From assembly GCF_030013595.1 (NCBI RefSeq), contig NZ_CP122768.1: a DNA stretch of 64,000 bases. One strand, written 5' to 3'. Below are positions 8,561 through 57,635 of this stretch, piece after piece. Position 1 is the stretch's first letter. The number at the start of each line of letters is the position of its first letter. The translations under genes and the position numbers were made by a program. This DNA is from Escherichia coli. GTDB lineage: Bacteria; Pseudomonadota; Gammaproteobacteria; Enterobacterales; Enterobacteriaceae. The notes under the pieces are model-generated. The model was given only the letters and a program-made list of their open reading frames with translations. It was not told the DNA's origin and ran no database searches.

Positions 8561-8789
8561 TCCTCTGATTTACAAAACACGCTAATTCGTCTTCCATAAA
8601 CCATGACGATTAAGATTTATACATAATGCGCTACATTGAGGAATTCCCTGAATGTGACGCAAATCACTTCAAAGAGTGAGCAACAGTCAGTATCATCATG
8701 TGAGTTAAACCCTCGCCGCCTGACGGTGAGGGTTTTCTTTTGGGTATGTTTATCTGCGACACTCGCAGTACCGACGACATGGAGTAAAA

Positions 8790-12404: not shown

Positions 12405-12775
12405 CTATACTTCCTCCGTGTTTTCGATGAGATGTAAGGTAACCAATTTTTGCCGATTCGGCTAATGCGTTTCCATTATCAAATCGATAAGTTTTACCTT
12501 ACAACCTTCGTAAGACAACTTTGTGAACTTTGCACCGCCAGCGGCGATAAAAAGTAAAATGGCCCCCTTTCCAGGTGACCGTGTAATCTGAACTACCCTT
12601 TGGTATCTTCAGCGCCTGCCTGCAGGCTGAGGTGTTGCCCTTACAAATGCAACAACGACATGGATTACAACACCCTCATAAACAAAGGGCAATCACCTGA
12701 TCTAAGCTCTTACCTATGACAGTGATAGGTTATGCCTTTTACCCGACTTTTGCACTGACTGAAAAGGACAAATTA

Positions 12776-21563: not shown

Positions 21564-22725
<1,162 letters not shown>

Positions 22726-40875: not shown

Positions 40876-40975
40876 TGCCGGATGCGGCGTGAACGCCTTA
40901 TCCGGCCTACAAAAATCTTGCCAATTCAATATATTGCAGGACCACGTAGGCCTGATAAGCGTAGCGCATCAGGCA
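40876..40975. repeat. REP / BIME-like palindromic units between fepA and entD
   Basis: gccggatgcggcgtgaacgccttatccggcctac, then an inverted partner gtaggcctgataagcgtagcgcatcaggc. Confidence 0.7.
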
Positions 40976-43101: not shown

Positions 43102-43254
43102 CTACTTCTTCGGTTCGTAAGCGAGAACAGCCTTAAACTCAATATTACGTTCCTTCACCGTAAACTCACACAGCGAGTCTCCGACCAGAAGCGTAAATCC
43201 CAGTACCGTCAAACACAGCACTATGACTGCCACAAGGGCATATTTCGTCAGCAT
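43102..43254 (-). CDS. hokE: Hok-family small toxic membrane peptide (type I toxin)
   Basis: Minus-strand 50-codon [53 protein letters not shown], typical Hok; stop codon lies 21 bp from the IS186 target duplication. Confidence 0.85.
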
Positions 43255-43680
43255 GTTTATATTGCCTCCATGCGAAGAAGGGACTACCATCCAAATTGTC
43301 TGGTTTGGAGTGGCAGCCCCAGGGTTGATAGAAATATCTCCTGGGGCTTCATCTTTCCAGACCTCAGAGTAAACCTGAAACCGGAAAGCTTCAGGCACCC
43401 GCCGTTATCTTACCCTTCCTCAGCAAAATAGCTGTTTATTTATACAGTGAGTCCTGTTTCGGACTTCTCACTCCTCATTTGATCAACTGAAGCTGAACCC
43501 GTTTTTTTCTGCATGCCTCAATCGTCAAAATTCTTCGCCACCAGCCAGCTCTGCCATAACTTGTCACATTGCAGAAGTAGCCAAACTTCTTCAGTCACAA
43601 TCAGTTCACCATCACCAAAAAAAGAAACATTCCAGAACTTCCGCATCTCGCCCAGTCGCTCCCACTTCTATACTGAATAG

Positions 43681-47752: not shown

Positions 47753-49129
47753 TTATTTCCGACGCAGCGTTTTAAACGCTACAAACAGGAATACAATCCA
47801 CACTGGCAGCAGAATCGCTGACAAGCGCATATCATCCATCGTGCACATCAGCAGCAAAATCATGCCGAGGAAGGCGATGCAGAGATAGTTGCCGAACGGA
47901 TAGAGCAGCGCCTTAAACTGTGTTTCACGCCCCTGACGACGCATCGCTGCACGAAAACGCAGATGCGCCAGGCAGATCATAATCCAGTTCAACAGCAGCG
48001 TTGCTACCACCAGCGCCATCAGCAGACCAAACGCTTTTTGCGGCAGCAGATAGTTGATTAACACCACCAGCGAAGTGATCGCTCCGGAAAGCATCAGCGA
48101 GTTAATCGGCACACCGCGACGGCTGACGCGAGTCAAAAACTTTGGCGCATTACCCTGCACTGAAAGGCCAAACAGCATCCGACTGTTAGAATAAACCCCG
48201 CTGTTATACACCGATAACGATGCCACCAGAATGACGAAGTTCAGCGCAGAAGCTACCACGTTGCTGTCGAGATTATGGAAAATCATCACAAACGGGCTAC
48301 TGTTGGATTTCACTTCCACCCACGGATAGAGTGCCAGTAAAACCACCAGTGAGCCGATATAAAACAGCAGGATGCGATACACCACCTGATTCACTGCTTT
48401 AGGGATGCTTTTTTCCGGATCGCGCGCTTCAGCGGCAGTAATCCCAATCAACTCCAGACCGCCGAAAGAGAACATAATTACCGCCAGCGACAAAATCAGC
48501 CCATTCCAGCCGGTGGCAAAAAAACCACCGTAGCGCCAGAGGTTGTCGATACTGGCTTTCTCGCCGCCGTGACCAGAAAACAGCAGCCACAGACCAAAGC
48601 CGATCATACCGATGATCGCCAGCACTTTAATCAGCGCAAACCAGAACTCGGTTTCGCCATATAAGCGCACGTTCACCAGGTTAACGGCGTTGATGATAAT
48701 AAAGAAGGCGGCAGCCCAAATCCACGTTGGAACATCCGGGAACCAGTACTGCATATAGATGCCCGCAGCGGTCAACTCTGCCATTCCCACCAGCACGAAC
48801 ATCACCCAGTAGTTCCAGCCAGAGAGGAAGCCCGCAAACGGTCCCCAGTATTTATAGGCAAAGTGGGCAAATGAACCGGATACCGGCTCTTCGACCACCA
48901 TCTCGCCGAGCTGGCGCATAATCAGGAAAGCGATGATCCCAGCGACGCCGTAGCCCAGCAATACAGCCGGACCCGCCATCTGAATCGCCGGGCCAATGCC
49001 AAGAAACAGACCAGTACCAATTGCGCCACCCAGCGCAATCAGTTGAATATGACGGTTATGTAATCCGCGATGAAGCGTCGGCTCTTGATTCGACGCAGTA
49101 TCTTCCGATACGGTTGACGCGTTTTTCAC
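47753..49129 (-). CDS. pheP: Phenylalanine-specific permease (APC family)
   Basis: ORF 47753-49165; start placed at the GTG (49127-49129) giving MKNASTVSEDTASNQEP... and 458 aa. Confidence 0.85.
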   Translation of the reverse strand: MKNASTVSEDTASNQEPTLHRGLHNRHIQLIALGGAIGTGLFLGIGPAIQMAGPAVLLGYGVAGIIAFLIMRQLGEMVVEEPVSGSFAHFAYKYWGPFAGFLSGWNYWVMFVLVGMAELTAAGIYMQYWFPDVPTWIWAAAFFIIINAVNLVNVRLYGETEFWFALIKVLAIIGMIGFGLWLLFSGHGGEKASIDNLWRYGGFFATGWNGLILSLAVIMFSFGGLELIGITAAEARDPEKSIPKAVNQVVYRILLFYIGSLVVLLALYPWVEVKSNSSPFVMIFHNLDSNVVASALNFVILVASLSVYNSGVYSNSRMLFGLSVQGNAPKFLTRVSRRGVPINSLMLSGAITSLVVLINYLLPQKAFGLLMALVVATLLLNWIMICLAHLRFRAAMRRQGRETQFKALLYPFGNYLCIAFLGMILLLMCTMDDMRLSAILLPVWIVFLFVAFKTLRRK

Positions 49130-49230: not shown

Positions 49231-52200
49231 TTATTTCCGTACCCGATGTCGGTGCAGCCACATCAGCTTATACGCCGCCGGGATAATAAACAGCGACAGC
49301 AAAGGCGCGGTGATCATGCCGCCAATCATCGGCGCGGCAATCCGGCTCATCACCTCTGAACCTGCTCCCGTTCCCCACAGAATCGGCAGCAGACCAGCGA
49401 TAATCACCGCCACCGTCATCGCTTTCGGGCGCACGCGCAGGACCGCGCCGTGATACAACGCCTCATCCAGCTTCTGCTCGCTGAATGTTTGCGGATTATT
49501 CAACGACGGCTCGGCCTCTATGGCGTGACGTAAATACATCAGCATCACCACGCCAAATTCGGCGGCGACCCCGGCAAGGGCAATAAAACCGGTGCCCGTC
49601 GCCACGGAAAGATGAAAGCCCATCCACCACAGCAACCAGATGCCACCCACCAGCGCAAACGGTACGCTGCTGATAATCAGCAACGCTTCGCCCACCCGAC
49701 GGAACGCCAAATACAACAGCACGAAGATGATCATCAACGTCATCGGCACCATGAGTTTCAGCTTATGGTTGGCGCGTTCCAGTAGCTCGAACTGCCCGGA
49801 GAATGCCACGCTGGTGCCCGGTTTTAACTGTACTTTTTCAGCTATCGCTTTTTGCAGATCGTGAACCACCGACACTATGTCACGATCGCGGGCATCGATA
49901 TAAATCCAGCTCGTCGGGCGCGCATTCTCGGTTTTCAGCATCGACGGTCCGGTAGAGACTTTAACGTCAGCCACGTCTGCCAGGGTGATTTGCTGCTTCA
50001 TCGGCGTCAGAATCGGCAACTGGCGCAGCGCCTGCGGACTATCGCGCCAGCTTTGCGGATAACGCAGATTAATTGGATAACGGGCAATCCCTTCCACCGT
50101 TTCGCCAACCATCGCCCCGCCCACCGCAGATGTCACAAACAATTGCACATCCGCCACCGTCATACCGTAACGCGCGGCTTTTTCACGGTTAATCTCAACG
50201 TTGATATAGCGCCCACCTTCCAGACGCTCGGCAAGCGCAGAAGCTACGCCTGGCACCGTTCGCGCCACTTCTTCAATTTGCTCCGCCATCGCGTCGATAT
50301 CCGCCAGCACAGTGCCGGAAACTTTAATGCCGATGGGGCTTTTAATGCCGGTTGAGAGCATATCGATACGGTTACGAATTGGCGGCACCCACAGATTCGC
50401 CAGCCCCGGCAGACGCACGGTGTTATCCAGTTCCTCAATGATTTTGTCCATCGTCATGCCTGGCCGCCACTGATCTTGTGGCTTAAGCTGGATGGTCGTT
50501 TCTACCATCTCCAGCGGAGCAGAATCGGTGGCGGTTTCCGCTTTCCCGGTTTTGCCAAATACCCGCGCCACTTCAGGTACGCTCATAATCAGCTTGTCGG
50601 TTTTTTGCAGCATACTCGCCGCCTCTGCTGCGGAAATCCCCGGCAGCGTCGATGGCATATACAACAAGTCGCCTTCATTGATCTGCGGTAAAAATTCCCC
50701 GCCAACTTTATTGAGCGGCCAGAGAACCGTCAGCACCGAAAGCGCTGCCACCAGCAGCGTGGTTTTTGGCCAGTGCAGTACTTTCAGCAACAGCGGATGA
50801 TAAGCACGAATCAAAAAGCGATTGAGCGGGTTACTGCTTTCTGGCGGAATTTTGCCACGGATCCAGTAACCCATCAGGATAGGGATCACTATGATCGCCA
50901 GCAGCGCCGCACCCGCCATCGCATACGTTTTGGTGAACGCCAGCGGGCCAAACAGACGCCCTTCCTGCCCTTCCAGGGTGAAGATCGGGATAAACGACAA
51001 CGTGATAATCAGCAGACTGATAAACAACGCCGGACCCACTTCAACAGACGCATCGGTGATCACCTGCCAGCGCGTTTTATTATCCAGCGTGGCGTCAGGA
51101 TGCTGGTGCTGCCACTCTTCCAGCCGTTTATGCGCATTCTCGATCATGACGATAGCGGCATCGACCATCGCCCCGACGGCAATCGCAATGCCGCCCAGCG
51201 ACATAATATTGGCGTTCAGTCCCTGAAATTGCATGACAATAAAAGCAATACACAACCCCAGCGGCAACGAAATAATCGCCACCAGCGCCGAGCGCACATG
51301 CCAGAGAAACAGCGCACAGACTACCGCCACCACAATAAACTCTTCCAGCAACTTGCCGCTGAGGTTGTCGATGGCGCGGTCAATGAGCTGGCTGCGATCG
51401 TATGTTGTAACTATCTCCACGCCTTCCGGCAGACTACTTTTCAGCGTTTCCAGTTTGTCTTTCACGGCGGCGATCACTTCTCGGGCGTTTTTGCCGGAGC
51501 GCAGGATCACCACCCCGCCCGCCACTTCGCCTTCGCCGTTCAGTTCGGCAATGCCCCGGCGCATCTCCGGGCCAATCTGGACCTTCGCAACATCGCGCAG
51601 ATAAACGGGCACGCCATTTTCACTGGCTTTTAAAACGATGTGATTAAAGTCGTCGAGCGTTTGCAGATAGCCGCTGGCGCGCACCATATATTCCGCTTCC
51701 GCCAGTTCGATCGACGAACCGCCCGCTTCCTGGTTTGAAGCATCCAGCGCGCTTTTTACTTCGGCGAGACTGATGCCATATTGCGCCAGGCGCTGAGGAT
51801 CGATAACCACCTGATACTCTTTCACCACACCGCCTACCGACGCCACTTCCGCAACGTCAGGAATGGTTTTCAGCTCATATTTGAGAAACCAGTCCTGCAA
51901 TGAGCGTAAATCGGCAAGATCGTGCTTACCGCTGCGATCCACCAGTGCATATTCATAGATCCAGCCAACACCCGTGGCATCTGGCCCCAGCTCGGCGCTG
52001 ACTCCCGCAGGGAGCTTACCCTGTACCTGGTTGAGGTACTCCAGCACCCGCGAACGCGCCCAGTACGGATCGGTGCCATCTTCGAAAATGACATACACAT
52101 AAGAGTCGCCAAACTGCGAGAAACCGCGCACAGTCTTCGCGCCAGGCACCGACAACATGGTGGTGGTTAGCGGATAAGTCACCTGATTTTCAACGATTTG

Positions 52201-52374
52201 CGGTGCCTGACCGGGATAGCTGGTTTTAATAATCACCTGCACATCGGAGAGATCCGGCAGCGCATCCACTGGCGTGTTAATGATGGTCCAGGTGCCCCAG
52301 ATACTCAGAAACAACGCGCCCATCAGTACCAGAAAACGGTTCGCCACCGAGCGACGAATAATCCATTCAATCAT
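49231..52374 (-). CDS. cusA: Cu(I)/Ag(I) efflux RND inner membrane pump
   Basis: 1047-aa [30 protein letters not shown]... Confidence 0.95.
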
Positions 52375-52385
52375 TGGTTATTCCC

Positions 52386-53609
52386 TCAATGCGCATGGGT
52401 AGCACTTTCAGAGCGAATCCGCTCCAGTGCGCCAGAAATATTGGCTTCGGAATCAATCAGGAACAGGCCGCTGGAAACCACCTTTTCACCTTCCGCCAGA
52501 CCAGAGCGTAACGCGGTGACGCCTTGCGATGCCTGGAAAACGGCAACGCGTTTCGGTACAAAGCGCCCGTCGGCATCAACGGTAATCACCCGCTGTTCGC
52601 TGCCGGTATCAATCAGCGCTTGTGACGGAATGAGCAGCATCGGTTCGCTGGCGGTGTTGAGTTGCAACCAGGCGTTCATTCCCGGCTTTAGCGCCTCGTC
52701 GGTGTTGTCGACTTCCAGGCGCAACTGCAGCGTGCGGGTCGCGGCATCCACGCCAGGTAGTAGCGTCCATTTGCGAATGGTGAGTGTTTTATCCGGTCGC
52801 GCCGGAACGGTGAGCGTAAACTGCGAGGCATCTTTCACCAGCCAGGCGATGGACTCCGGGATCGCAGCAGTGACCCACACCGGATCCATACCCTGAATTT
52901 TCGCTACCACGTTATCTTTGGCGATATTCATTCCCGCGCGCAGATCAAACGCGGTGATCACGCCATCAATGGGTGCTTTGAGCGTAAAGCGAGTCTGGAT
53001 TTTTTGCGTGGCAATCAGGCGGCGAATATCCGCCTCCGGCATTCCCGCCAGTCGCAGTCGCTCAAGAATGCCTTCAGTCTGGGTCGCCGTACCGCCGGTT
53101 TCGCGCAGCAGTAAATACTCACTCTGCGCTTCCACCCAGTCAGGAATGGTCAGGTCGAGAAGCGGCGCGCCCTTTTGTACTTTATCGCCCACGGTAAGCG
53201 GATACACCTTGTCGATAAACCCGGCGGCGCGGGCCTGCACAATGGCATACTGATACTCGTTGTAACTGACATTCGCCGGGAAACTCTGGGAAAAAGTCAG
53301 CGGCCCGCGCGTGACGGTAGCCGTTTTCACCCCCAGATTCTGCGTCTGAGTCGGGTCAATGCGCACACCAGACGCAGAACTCTCTTCATCGGCATATTTC
53401 GGCACCAGATCCATATCCATAAACGGCGATTTACCTGGTTTATCGAACCGCGTATTGGGATACATCGGGTCGTACCAGAATAATATTTTACGTTCTGCGG
53501 TCGACGTTTTTTCTGCGGGCGGTTCCGCCTTTGCAAACCAGGTAAAACCTGCCGCAGAAATAATACCGCCCGCGATCATGCTGCCGATAATAAGCGCGAT
53601 TTTTTTCAT
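52386..53609 (-). CDS. cusB: Cu(I)/Ag(I) efflux membrane fusion protein
   Basis: 407-aa ORF upstream of cusA. Confidence 0.9.
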   Translation of the reverse strand: MKKIALIIGSMIAGGIISAAGFTWFAKAEPPAEKTSTAERKILFWYDPMYPNTRFDKPGKSPFMDMDLVPKYADEESSASGVRIDPTQTQNLGVKTATVTRGPLTFSQSFPANVSYNEYQYAIVQARAAGFIDKVYPLTVGDKVQKGAPLLDLTIPDWVEAQSEYLLLRETGGTATQTEGILERLRLAGMPEADIRRLIATQKIQTRFTLKAPIDGVITAFDLRAGMNIAKDNVVAKIQGMDPVWVTAAIPESIAWLVKDASQFTLTVPARPDKTLTIRKWTLLPGVDAATRTLQLRLEVDNTDEALKPGMNAWLQLNTASEPMLLIPSQALIDTGSEQRVITVDADGRFVPKRVAVFQASQGVTALRSGLAEGEKVVSSGLFLIDSEANISGALERIRSESATHAH

Positions 53610-53624
53610 CTCATTAAACCTGGG

Positions 53625-53957
53625 TTACTGGCTGACTTTAATATCCTGTAATAAAGAAAGGTTGCCCTGCTGGACAAAATTAAACGCCACTTTGTCGCCG
53701 GTTTTAATTTCACTCATTTTCGTCTGCGGGGTGATGGTAAAGCGCATGGTCATCTCCGGCCAGTTCACGGCTGCAATCGGATCGTGATGGATGGTGATTT
53801 TTTTGCTTTCCAGATCAACACCTTTTACCACGCCAGTGGCGCTAATAACCTGTTGTTGTGCTTCGCTCATGGTTTCATGATGATGTTCGTTAGCCTGGGC
53901 ATTAAAGCCAATAACGGTAAACAGACTAAACATTGCGACTTGCAGTGCTTTTTTCAT
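53625..53957 (-). CDS. cusF: Periplasmic copper/silver metallochaperone
   Basis: 110-aa ORF with signal peptide. Confidence 0.9.
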   Translation of the reverse strand: MKKALQVAMFSLFTVIGFNAQANEHHHETMSEAQQQVISATGVVKGVDLESKKITIHHDPIAAVNWPEMTMRFTITPQTKMSEIKTGDKVAFNFVQQGNLSLLQDIKVSQ

Positions 53958-53980: not shown

Positions 53981-55363
53981 TTATTGCTGCCAACCGCCCC
54001 CTAAGGCGGTATATAAAGAAATTTCGTTAACCTGACGGGCATAATTCAGGTCAAGTAAAGTTTGTCGGGTTGCAAATAAAGAACGCTCAGCATCCAGCAC
54101 TTCCAGATAGCTTACTGCGCCGTGCTGATATAATGCCCGCGCCCGTTGCAGGGTAATTTGCAGCGACGCCAGATAACGCTGCTGGGCGCTGATTTGATCG
54201 TTCAGGCTTTGACGTAATGCCAGCGCATCTGCCACTTCTTTAAAGGCGTTCTGGATTTTCTGTTCATAATTCACCACCGACTGCTGCTGGCGAATTTCGG
54301 CGATATCCAGATTGGCCTGGTTACGTTCGGCATTAAAAATGGGGATCTCAATTTTGGGTATAAAATTCCACATCCCGCTGCTGGCGTTAAATAATGACGA
54401 CAGATCGCTGCTGGCGGTTGATATTCCGCTGGTCAGGCTGATAGACGGGAAAAATGCCGCGCGTGCAGCACCAATATTGGCATTAGCCGCCATTAACGCA
54501 TGTTCAGCTTCCATAATATCCGGGCGCTGCAATAAGATTTGCGACGACAAGCCCGCCGGTAATTTAACGCTTTGCAGGCTGTCGCTGTTTACTGTCTGCG
54601 CTTGCGGCAGCTTGCCGTAGCTTCCCAATAACAGTTGCAATGCATTATTCGCCTGCGCCAGTTCCCCCTGACGTTTAGCGATGTCGCTACGGGTACTTTC
54701 AATCACCCCGCGAGCCTGTTCCAGCGCCAGAACATTACTGCTACCTGTCAACAGTTGTTTTTCAACAAACGCATATGACTGCTGATAATTACGCAGCGTT
54801 TCTTCGGCTATTTGTAATTGTGCATAAGCCAGTTGCTGATTGAAATAGCTTTGTGCGACATTAGAAACCAGCAGAATATGCACCGCGCGCTGGGCTTCCT
54901 CAGTGGCTAAATAATTTTGGCGCTCGGCTTCGCTCATGTTCTTTAAGCGACCGAAAAAATCGAGATCAAAGCTGGCGTTAAGGCCAGTCGAGAACTCCCG
55001 CGTCGAGGCTGAATCGCCTTTAAGATTGCCGCTCCAGCTGCCGCTGCCCTCGCCATTGAGCTGTGGGTAGCGGTCGGCATCGGTCAGACGATATTGCGCC
55101 CGCGCTTCCTGCACTTTCAGCGTCGCCATGCGCAAATCCCGGTTATTCACCAGCGCCTCGCTAATCAGCGTCTTCACCTGATTATCAACAAAAAAGGTGC
55201 GCCAGCCCGCGTTCTGGTAGTTATCTGCTGCGTTAACCAGGCCGTTCTGGTTGAGTGAGAACTGCTGCGGCACGGGCATTGCCGGGCGCTGATAATCCGG
55301 TGCCAGTGAACAACCGGTTAGCGCAAGGGCCACACAAAATGGCAGAAGTTTACAAGGAGACAT
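53981..55363 (-). CDS. cusC: Cu(I)/Ag(I) efflux outer membrane factor (lipoprotein)
   Basis: 460-aa ORF with lipobox LTGCS; exact start uncertain by a few codons. Confidence 0.9.
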   Translation of the reverse strand: MSPCKLLPFCVALALTGCSLAPDYQRPAMPVPQQFSLNQNGLVNAADNYQNAGWRTFFVDNQVKTLISEALVNNRDLRMATLKVQEARAQYRLTDADRYPQLNGEGSGSWSGNLKGDSASTREFSTGLNASFDLDFFGRLKNMSEAERQNYLATEEAQRAVHILLVSNVAQSYFNQQLAYAQLQIAEETLRNYQQSYAFVEKQLLTGSSNVLALEQARGVIESTRSDIAKRQGELAQANNALQLLLGSYGKLPQAQTVNSDSLQSVKLPAGLSSQILLQRPDIMEAEHALMAANANIGAARAAFFPSISLTSGISTASSDLSSLFNASSGMWNFIPKIEIPIFNAERNQANLDIAEIRQQQSVVNYEQKIQNAFKEVADALALRQSLNDQISAQQRYLASLQITLQRARALYQHGAVSYLEVLDAERSLFATRQTLLDLNYARQVNEISLYTALGGGWQQ

Positions 55364-55432
55364 AGGCTCATAATTTCTGGTGATTTTATGCCGCCAACTT
55401 TACTCGCCAGGCTCTGATTTTCCGGTGACAGG

Positions 55433-55454
55433 AAAATGACAAAATTGTCATTTT
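55433..55454. promoter_or_regulatory. CusR box in the divergent cusC / cusR promoter region
   Basis: Perfect palindrome aaaatgacaaaattgtcatttt. Confidence 0.8.
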
Positions 55455-55519
55455 GCCAATAAGCGATTGCCATCTGATCCCGCTACTCTAGAATTGCCCG
55501 GGCAACATGCGGAGGAAAT

Positions 55520-56203
55520 ATGAAACTGTTGATTGTCGAAGATGAAAAGAAAACCGGAGAATACTTGACCAAAGGGTTAACCGAAGCCGGTTTTGTGGTC
55601 GATTTGGCCGACAACGGGCTGAATGGCTACCATCTGGCGATGACCGGTGATTATGACCTGATAATCCTCGATATTATGCTGCCAGACGTGAACGGCTGGG
55701 ATATCGTGCGTATGTTGCGTTCCGCCAATAAAGGGATGCCGATTCTGTTGCTTACCGCGCTTGGCACCATTGAACATCGCGTCAAGGGGCTGGAGTTGGG
55801 GGCCGATGACTATCTGGTGAAGCCGTTCGCTTTTGCTGAACTGCTGGCGCGGGTGCGCACTCTCCTGCGGCGCGGGGCGGCGGTGATTATCGAAAGTCAG
55901 TTTCAGGTTGCCGATCTGATGGTCGATCTCGTCAGCCGCAAAGTCACCCGCAGCGGCACGCGCATCACTTTGACCAGTAAAGAATTTACTTTGCTGGAGT
56001 TTTTCCTCCGCCATCAGGGTGAAGTGCTGCCCCGCTCGCTTATCGCCTCGCAGGTGTGGGACATGAATTTCGACAGCGATACCAACGCCATTGATGTGGC
56101 GGTGAAGCGGCTGCGCGGCAAAATCGACAACGACTTTGAGCCGAAGCTGATTCAAACCGTGCGCGGCGTGGGCTACATGCTTGAGGTGCCGGATGGTCAG
56201 TAA
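55520..56203 (+). CDS. cusR: Copper-responsive response regulator (OmpR family)
   Basis: 227-aa [28 protein letters not shown]... Confidence 0.95.
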
Positions 56204-57635
56204 GCCATTTCAGCGCCCGTTTTCGCTGGCAACCCGCCTGACCTTTTTTATCAGCCTCGCCACCATCGCGGCGTTTTTCGCCTTTGCATGGATCATGATC
56301 CACTCGGTAAAAGTGCATTTTGCCGAGCAGGATATTAATGATTTAAAAGAGATTAGCGCCACCCTTGAACGGGTACTTAATCACCCTGACGAAACGCAAG
56401 CCCGACGCTTAATGACGCTGGAAGATATCGTCAGTGGTTATTCCAATGTGTTGATCTCCCTGGCAGATAGCCACGGTAAAACGGTATATCACTCCCCCGG
56501 TGCGCCCGATATCCGCGAGTTTGCACGTGATGCCATACCCGATACAGACGCGCGGGGTGGCGAGGTGTATCTCCTTTCCGGCCCGACAATTATGATGCCG
56601 GGCCACGGTCACGGGCATATGGAACACAGCAACTGGCGGATGATTAACTTGCCGGTTGGCCCGTTGGTGGACGGCAAACCGATTTATACGCTCTACATTG
56701 CGCTTTCGATCGATTTTCATCTTCATTACATAAATGATTTGATGAATAAACTTGTAATGACCGCATCGATCATTAGCATCCTGATCGTCTTTATCGTGCT
56801 GTTGGCGGTACATAAAGGTCACGCGCCGATCCGCAGCGTCAGCCGTCAAATCCAGAACATTACCTCGAAAGATCTCGACGTTCGCCTTGACCCGCAGACC
56901 GTGCCGATTGAGCTGGAACAGTTGGTACTGTCGTTCAACCATATGATCGAGCGTATTGAGGATGTCTTTACCCGCCAGTCCAATTTCTCAGCGGATATCG
57001 CCCACGAAATTCGTACACCGATTACGAATCTCATAACGCAAACCGAAATCGCCCTCAGCCAGTCGCGCAGCCAGAAGGAGCTTGAAGATGTGCTCTACTC
57101 TAATCTCGAAGAGCTGACGCGAATGGCGAAAATGGTCAGCGATATGTTGTTTCTCGCCCAGGCCGATAACAACCAGTTAATCCCCGAAAAGAAAATGCTC
57201 AACCTGGCGGATGAAGTCGGCAAAGTGTTCGATTTTTTCGAGGCGTTAGCGGAAGATCGCGGCGTGGAGTTGCAGTTTGTTGGTGACGAGTGTCAGGTTG
57301 CGGGCGATCCGCTGATGTTGCGTCGGGCGTTAAGCAACCTGCTTTCGAACGCCCTGCGTTATACGCCAACCGGAGAGACAATTGTAGTGCGCTGTCAAAT
57401 GGTCGATCACCAGGTGCAAGTTTCCGTCGAAAACCCCGGTACGCCCATTGCGCCCGAACACTTACCGCGATTGTTTGACCGTTTCTATCGCGTTGACCCC
57501 TCCCGTCAGCGAAAAGGCGAAGGTAGCGGCATTGGTCTGGCGATAGTGAAATCGATAGTTGTCGCGCATAAAGGCACGGTTGCAGTAACGTCAGATGCTC
57601 GGGGGACAAGGTTTGTTATCACATTACCCGCTTAA
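56193..57635 (+). CDS. cusS: Copper-sensing histidine kinase
   Basis: ORF 56181-57635; start at [16 protein letters not shown]... gives 480 aa; overlaps the cusR stop. Confidence 0.9.

Follow-up and report, generated by a model that had tools for sequence, protein, structure and literature searches.

The CusR operator between the divergent cusC and cusR genes of Escherichia coli and its conserved surroundings

The CusR box of E. coli is given as AAAATGACAAnnTTGTCATTTT in PMC11195947 (citing Munson 2000), which places it in the interval separating the divergently transcribed cusRS and cusC(F)BA operons. The DNase-I-footprinted CusR site is printed in its K-12 context in the S1 Text of PMC9725139, and these two sources trace the K-12 site to Munson et al. 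2000 and to Yamamoto and Ishihama 2005. In genomic SELEX, a single strong peak for CusR and a single peak for HprR fell into the cusRS/cusCFBA spacer (PMC8249747). An information footprint appears in the cusC promoter upon copper addition (PMC12132413), and induction of a PcusC-gfp reporter requires CusRS (PMC8966772). When a PcusR-yfp reporter was assayed with and without 500 µM CuSO4, the authors estimated an about 5-fold induction, and the cusR promoter was described as autoregulated with a single binding site (PMC9725139). In the supplement of that study (S1 Text), the head-to-head arrangement of the site was considered atypical for regulators of the OmpR/PhoB family, phospho-CusR was able to bind head-to-tail in SELEX experiments and an additional half-site downstream of the footprinted site was suggested as possible.

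Related regulators use similar sites. The consensus of CopR/PcoR/AgrR-type regulators is ATKACANNNNTGTMAT (PMC7380067), and in the AgrR box of Cupriavidus metallidurans this inverted repeat is accompanied by in-phase direct repeats. Binding and activation by AgrR draw on the inverted repeat as well as on the in-phase direct repeat next to the promoter: mutations of the former nearly abolished activation and mutation of the latter largely reduced it (PMC7380067). AgrR is a different regulator from a different organism and was studied in its unphosphorylated state, and it is AgrR for which the role of the direct repeat was established. The box at hiuH-hprR (CATTACAAAATTGTAATG) is built on the same 6-4-6 inverted-repeat plan, and both CusR and HprR recognise it, at different affinities, but its half-site is TTACA instead of the TGACA of the cus box and it belongs to a different locus outside our window. 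For PhoB, a K-12 ChIP-seq site at cusR/cusC was reported (TGTCATTTTTCTGTCACC at 595521) with an enrichment of 3 compared with 14-20 at phoE and phoA, and cusC expression was about 4-fold lower in the delta-phoB strain than in the wild type (50 vs 208; PMC10294691).

The CusR box in the E. coli window

Here, we analysed a stretch of E. coli DNA of 64,000 nucleotides (the window), in which the original prediction had placed a CusR box between cusC and cusR. The coordinates of the relevant features are summarized in Table 1. The 22-mer AAAATGACAAAATTGTCATTTT lies within the 156-bp cusC-cusR spacer, and the surrounding sequence of the window reads ...GGTGACAGGAAAATGACAAAATTGTCATTTTGCCAATAAG... When compared with the published box AAAATGACAAnnTTGTCATTTT, it showed 0 mismatches and it was unique in the window. 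The spacer of K-12 MG1655 (NC_000913.3, 595444-595599) aligned base for base with that of the window, and the sole difference was position 55432, which adjoins the box on its outside and is G in the window but A in K-12. In this alignment, the box of the window occupies the position of the DNase-I-footprinted K-12 site. The two strains agree in the 22-mer, the length of the spacer, the order of the genes and the promoter hexamers, and nothing of substance distinguishes our locus from the K-12 system. The assignment of 55433-55454 as CusR site was thus borne out by both the published sequence and the footprinted K-12 context. We also considered whether the published site might lie elsewhere in this spacer, which would have contradicted the assignment, and found that it falls on 55433-55454. 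The feature had been recorded as an expected one, intended as positive control, and it is indeed an ordinary and already published CusR operator.

Table 1. Genes and sequence elements at the cus locus (window coordinates)
Feature	Position	Strand	Remarks
cusA	49231-52374	-	
cusB	52386-53609	-	
cusF	53625-53957	-	NCBIfam NF007348, 205.5 bits (cut-off 143)
cusC	53981-55363	-	First gene of cusCFBA; ORF, RefSeq annotation, NCBIfam NF007347, 898.1 bits (cut-off 598)
PcusC -10 TAAAGT	55397-55402	-	TAnnnT at fixed distance in 8 promoters
Fourth repeat ATCAG (consensus aaCAg)	55414-55418	-	Degenerate; 11 bp downstream of third half-site
Pho-box-like direct repeat TGTCATTTTCCTGTCACC	55424-55441	-	Proximal CusR-box arm plus third half-site
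Third half-site TGTCAC	55425-55430	-	Direct repeat of cusC-proximal arm, 11-bp phasing; about -40 to -35 of PcusC
CusR box	55433-55454	.	AAAATGACAA-AA-TTGTCATTTT; 10-nt arms, 2-nt spacer
6-4-6 core ATGACA-AAAT-TGTCAT	55436-55451	.	16 bp; fits ATKACANNNNTGTMAT with 0 mismatches
PcusR	55467-55494	+	-35 TTGCCA 55467-55472, 16-bp spacer, -10 TAGAAT 55489-55494
cusR	55520-56203	+	Response regulator binding the box; ORF, RefSeq annotation, NCBIfam NF007346 (equivalog), 507.9 bits (cut-off 420)
cusS	56193-57635	+	Cu(I)/Ag(I) sensor histidine kinase; position mapped from locus L001; NCBIfam NF007345, 978.8 bits (cut-off 423)

The region 55364-55519, which had been described as the divergent promoter region, is exactly the intergenic spacer, since cusC starts at 55363 on the minus strand and cusR at 55520 on the plus strand. 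A 356-bp segment round the site was 100% identical to E. coli strain 104, where the match is annotated cusC / cusR, and was found in 5335 of the 5426 complete E. coli genomes. The annotated gene order is pheP, cusA, cusB, cusF, cusC on one strand and cusR, cusS on the other. For CusR, CusS, CusC and CusF, every NCBIfam score exceeded its curated cut-off, and the open reading frames, the RefSeq annotation and the NCBIfam matches all place the box between the divergent cusCFBA and cusRS operons.

The box had been called a perfect 22-bp palindrome. The repeat finder gave two 10-nt arms with 100% complementarity (55433-55442 and 55445-55454). The AA between them (55443-55444) lacks self-complementarity, and the element is therefore a 10-N2-10 inverted repeat. 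A search of the 64-kb window for perfect inverted repeats (arm length 10 nt or more, spacer no longer than 4 nt) gave this element alone; block shuffles contained 0.23 such repeats on average. Shuffling of the 156-bp spacer produced no repeat of this kind in 5000 trials. The pattern AAAATGACAANNTTGTCATTTT had a single match in the window even when up to 3 mismatches were allowed, and 0 matches in 100 shuffles. The inverted repeat of the CusR box is well beyond chance. Its core at 55436-55451 has the 6-4-6 inverted-repeat structure of the copper-box family (CopR/PcoR/SilR/AgrR-type), and the consensus of AgrR-type sites fits it exactly.

Other signals in the window were recorded as well. A second stretch, ATGACGGTTATGTAAT at 49049-49064, fitted the 6-4-6 consensus with one mismatch and is located in the 5' part of the pheP coding sequence just downstream of cusA. 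We rejected this candidate as being at chance level, since at least 2 matches occurred in 7 of 100 shuffles. Rfam matches reaching the gathering score were found elsewhere in the window for the rnk leader (8636-8744), the small RNAs STnc70 (12549-12642) and ES036 (40912-40953), and the sok antitoxin RNA of a hok/sok-type locus (43246-43400).

Divergent promoters and additional repeats on the cusC side

In the promoter scan, the hexamers of PcusR showed 10 of 12 consensus matches. The published label "PcusR -35" stands at TGGCAA, which is the reverse complement of TTGCCA (PMC9725139 S1 Text), and the -10 hexamer TAGAAT is kept in the sil, Enterobacter and Lelliottia spacers. With a cusR transcription start that probably lies near 55501, the box would be centred at about -57 to -58 of PcusR. 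For PcusC, the published reporter fragment carries -35, -10 and +1 labels and ends ...GAGTAAAGTTGGCGGC (PMC9725139 S1 Text), which is seven bases past the TAAAGT hexamer. The PcusC start is thus likely to fall within 55390-55396, and with a start near 55390 the box would span about -64 to -43 with its centre at about -53.5. Both centre positions (-53.5 and -57.5) are approximate, because the starts were deduced from conserved hexamers and from the labels of published reporter constructs.

Read on the cusC strand, the region runs ATGACAATTTTGTCAT-tttcc-TGTCAC-cggaaa-ATCAG-agcctggcgag-TAAAGT and thus carries a third half-site and a degenerate fourth repeat downstream of the box. We compared this arrangement in a box-anchored, ungapped and non-redundant set of 8 promoters (E. 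coli and Enterobacter cusC; plasmid silC, pcoE and silE; loci of Denitrificimonas, Providencia and Collimonas). All 8 promoters have GTCA in the third half-site, without exception and at an identical ungapped distance from the box. In the fourth repeat, which falls into the -35/-10 spacer of PcusC at an estimated -29 to -24, every promoter has the CA, and the A, A and G around it each occur in 7 or more of the 8. The order common to all of them is core, 5 bp, xGTCAy, 6 bp, aaCAg, 11 bp and TAnnnT. The pattern of the third and fourth half-sites was also located at 2146-2151 and 22185-22190 of locus L002. On the cusR side of the E. coli box no symmetrical extra half-site was found (CAATAA at +11, AATAAG at +12), and the sil spacer has TGTAAT at +12 on the side of the regulator gene.

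Two further repeats touch this segment. A 20-nt direct repeat (80% identical) consists of AGGCTCATAATTTCTGGTGA at 55364-55383, which abuts the cusC start codon, and AGGCTCTGATTTTCCGGTGA at 55409-55428, which covers the region of the third and fourth half-sites; the copies are 45 bp apart and the similarity may be due to chance. An imperfect inverted repeat, ATTTTCCGGT / ACAGGAAAAT (9 of 10 positions, 55417-55437), has the third half-site at its centre and extends into the edge of the box. This repeat is weakened by the K-12 allele at 55432 and is therefore probably incidental.

Together, the third half-site and the box arm nearest to cusC form a good Pho box (TGTCATTTTCCTGTCACC, positions 55441 to 55424 on the minus strand) with two TGTCA-type direct repeats at 11-bp phasing. 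It is the counterpart of the K-12 PhoB ChIP-seq site and differs from TGTCATTTTTCTGTCACC by one spacer base at 55432 (TTTTCC in the window, TTTTTC in K-12). Since it overlaps an arm of the CusR box and matches the PhoB site, phosphate-starvation and copper signals converge on overlapping DNA. In pho promoters, the Pho box lies about 10 bp upstream of the -10 hexamer (10 bp at phoA), where it takes the place of the -35 element. This placement was not found at PcusC, where 22 bp separate the end of the 18-mer from the conserved TAAAGT downstream. Judged from the hexamer positions, it would lie about one helical turn farther from the -10 hexamer than in classical pho promoters.

Conservation of the box and related sites

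A 60-bp region round the box was present in 5237 of the 5426 complete E. coli genomes. Here, 3290 records were identical to the window and 1767 had the K-12 A at 55432 as sole change, so that G is the commoner E. coli allele at this position. A rare variant of the box, AAAATGACAATACTGTCATTTT, in which the centre and the innermost base of one arm are changed, occurred in 2 of about 5240 records (E. coli N96, L003 151-210, and strain 2017-02-2CC).

When the cus spacer was compared with the diverged plasmid silC-silR spacer, the conserved islands were the box arms, GGTGACAG, ACTTTAC and TAGAAT. The plasmid boxes ATGACAATGTTGTCAT (silC-silR), ATGACAAAGATGTCAT (silE) and ATGACAATTTTGTCAC (pcoE), which are targets of SilR, PcoR and CusR, have the 6-4-6 core in common with cus, and their promoters show the same ungapped spacing to the third half-site and to a TAnnnT -10 hexamer as cusC. 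In contrast, the boxes depart from cus in the central 4 bp and in the outer A/T runs, the remaining spacer has diverged, and the silE and pcoE promoters do not face a divergent regulator gene. On an IncHI2 sil/pco plasmid, the cus-type core was found upstream of pcoE and silE, and PcoR-type ATTACA boxes upstream of pcoA.

We also scanned a collection of species-representative genomes with the pattern AATGACAANNTTGTCATT (16 specified bases), which gave at least 120 matching stretches that serve as examples and not as a census. Among the matches listed, six loci (Enterobacter, Lelliottia, Denitrificimonas, Providencia, Collimonas and a metagenome-assembled contig) have a CusR homologue (58-89% identity) at 67-91 bp from the box; the taxonomic assignment of the metagenome-assembled contig (L096) is unreliable and the contig is a near-duplicate of the Denitrificimonas locus. 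On a sil plasmid, the box likewise stands beside a CusR homologue, within the same ranges of distance and identity. Among the matches listed, the box is thus conserved beside homologous regulator genes in other taxa.

Most matches listed for AATGACAANNTTGTCATT are unrelated to CusR loci and many of them are in Collinsella contigs; a longer pattern would be more specific. In several dozen Collinsella contigs among the matches listed, the pattern occurs with no CusR homologue nearby, which suggests an unrelated conserved palindrome that may be an operator or a repeat element. The copA-copR spacer of Ralstonia solanacearum (L126 2880-2915) contains ATTACAGTTTGGTCAT and then, toward the regulator, GTCAT at 11-bp phasing; on the other side a TGAC-containing repeat lies 11 bp off. 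This CopR-type locus has the same design of inverted plus direct repeats.

Function of the operator and alternative readings

Taken together, these data indicate with a probability of roughly 0.95 that 55433-55454 is the operator of the E. coli CusS/CusR system, where one site serves two divergent promoters. According to this mechanism, rising periplasmic Cu(I) or Ag(I) would cause CusS to phosphorylate CusR, and a CusR dimer would then bind the box at both arms (core ATGACA-N4-TGTCAT) and activate two divergent sigma-70 promoters from this one site. PcusC on the left would drive the cusCFBA efflux pump with the box centred near -53.5, and PcusR on the right, with the box centre near -57 to -58, would provide modest positive autoregulation of cusRS. 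HprR, a CusR paralogue responding to peroxide or hypochlorite, would use the same box, and the TGTCAC and AACAG-type repeats probably help to position an activator protomer at the -35 region and let PhoB bind. The autoregulated two-component control that had been proposed for this region agrees with the about 5-fold response of PcusR-yfp to copper and with the description of the cusR promoter as autoregulated (PMC9725139). CusR binding at this sequence and the copper- and CusRS-dependent induction of cusC are documented in the literature; what the present analysis contributes is the sequence identity, the uniqueness, the gene context and the conserved geometry.

A different view of the cusC promoter is that its functional unit is not the palindrome but a head-to-tail array of direct repeats (TGTCAT, TGTCAC, AACAG, 11-bp phasing), with the distal palindrome arm mainly adding affinity or serving the divergent cusR promoter. 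Such an array would resemble classical promoters of the OmpR/PhoB family, and it gains from the ungapped conservation across 8 promoters, complete for the GTCA of the third half-site and nearly complete for the fourth repeat, from the head-to-tail binding of phospho-CusR in SELEX and the possible additional half-site (PMC9725139 S1 Text), and from the large loss of AgrR activation upon mutation of the promoter-proximal repeat (PMC7380067). Nevertheless, we regard it as rather unlikely. The published footprint and consensus correspond to the palindrome, mutations of the inverted repeat nearly abolished AgrR activation (PMC7380067), and the conservation of the third half-site could instead reflect contacts of PhoB or RNA polymerase. 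Moreover, the palindrome is kept at the non-divergent pcoE and silE promoters, so that bidirectionality does not explain the distal arm.

In another reading, the site would be above all a PhoB operator for phosphate starvation and the palindrome incidental. The K-12 ChIP-seq site TGTCATTTTTCTGTCACC and the about 4-fold lower cusC expression in delta-phoB (PMC10294691) speak for such a function, and the same 18-mer with one spacer change is present in the window. Against it, the PhoB site comprises a single box arm together with the third half-site, and the distal arm is equally conserved; the ChIP enrichment is low (3 vs 14-20 at phoE and phoA; PMC10294691); and CusR binding, copper dependence and CusRS dependence are documented (PMC8249747, PMC12132413, PMC8966772, PMC9725139). 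The 22-bp distance of the 18-mer from the -10 hexamer also differs from the 10 bp of phoA, and we consider a primary PhoB operator highly improbable. Least probable of all, with hardly any weight left, is that the AT-rich inverted repeat arose by chance, or is an RNA hairpin or terminator, and does not serve as a protein operator. As single-stranded DNA the region can fold (-7.7 kcal/mol, z-score -2.45), but the repeat was absent from 5000 spacer shuffles and 100 window shuffles, no terminator-like site was detected in 55300-55600 and the Rfam search gave no RNA family match at the box. Across the homologues, we saw no compensatory changes that preserve pairing but alter the arm sequence; the arm sequence itself is conserved across distant taxa, beyond the ability to pair. 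Since the box lies upstream of both presumed transcription starts, it would not be transcribed. The shuffles, the terminator and Rfam searches and the arm conservation effectively refute this reading.

Within the reading as CusR operator, the conserved geometry leaves room for a tentative extension, to which we give somewhat less than even odds: the 22-bp box may be just the high-affinity part of a longer, 11-bp-phased operator (core-5 bp-TGTCAC-6 bp-AACAG-11 bp- -10) shared by the cusC, silC, pcoE and silE promoters. This proposal, drawn from the promoter alignment, is not new in kind, since it has been hinted at for CusR (PMC9725139 S1 Text) and shown for AgrR, and the conserved extra half-sites are a modest refinement of a known site. 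If it is true, phospho-CusR (and SilR) would extend head-to-tail from the palindrome onto the promoter-proximal repeats over the -35 region. Such an operator would bring the head-to-head site into line with the head-to-tail binding usual in the OmpR/PhoB family, and it would explain why PhoB is also able to activate cusC.

As a positive control, the locus indicates that a real regulatory site was recognised and correctly placed from the raw sequence. The convergence of CusR, HprR and PhoB control at this site is nothing new. For E. coli, the site means a single control point on the CusCFBA pump, through which CusS/CusR relays copper and silver, HprR oxidative signals and PhoB phosphate starvation.
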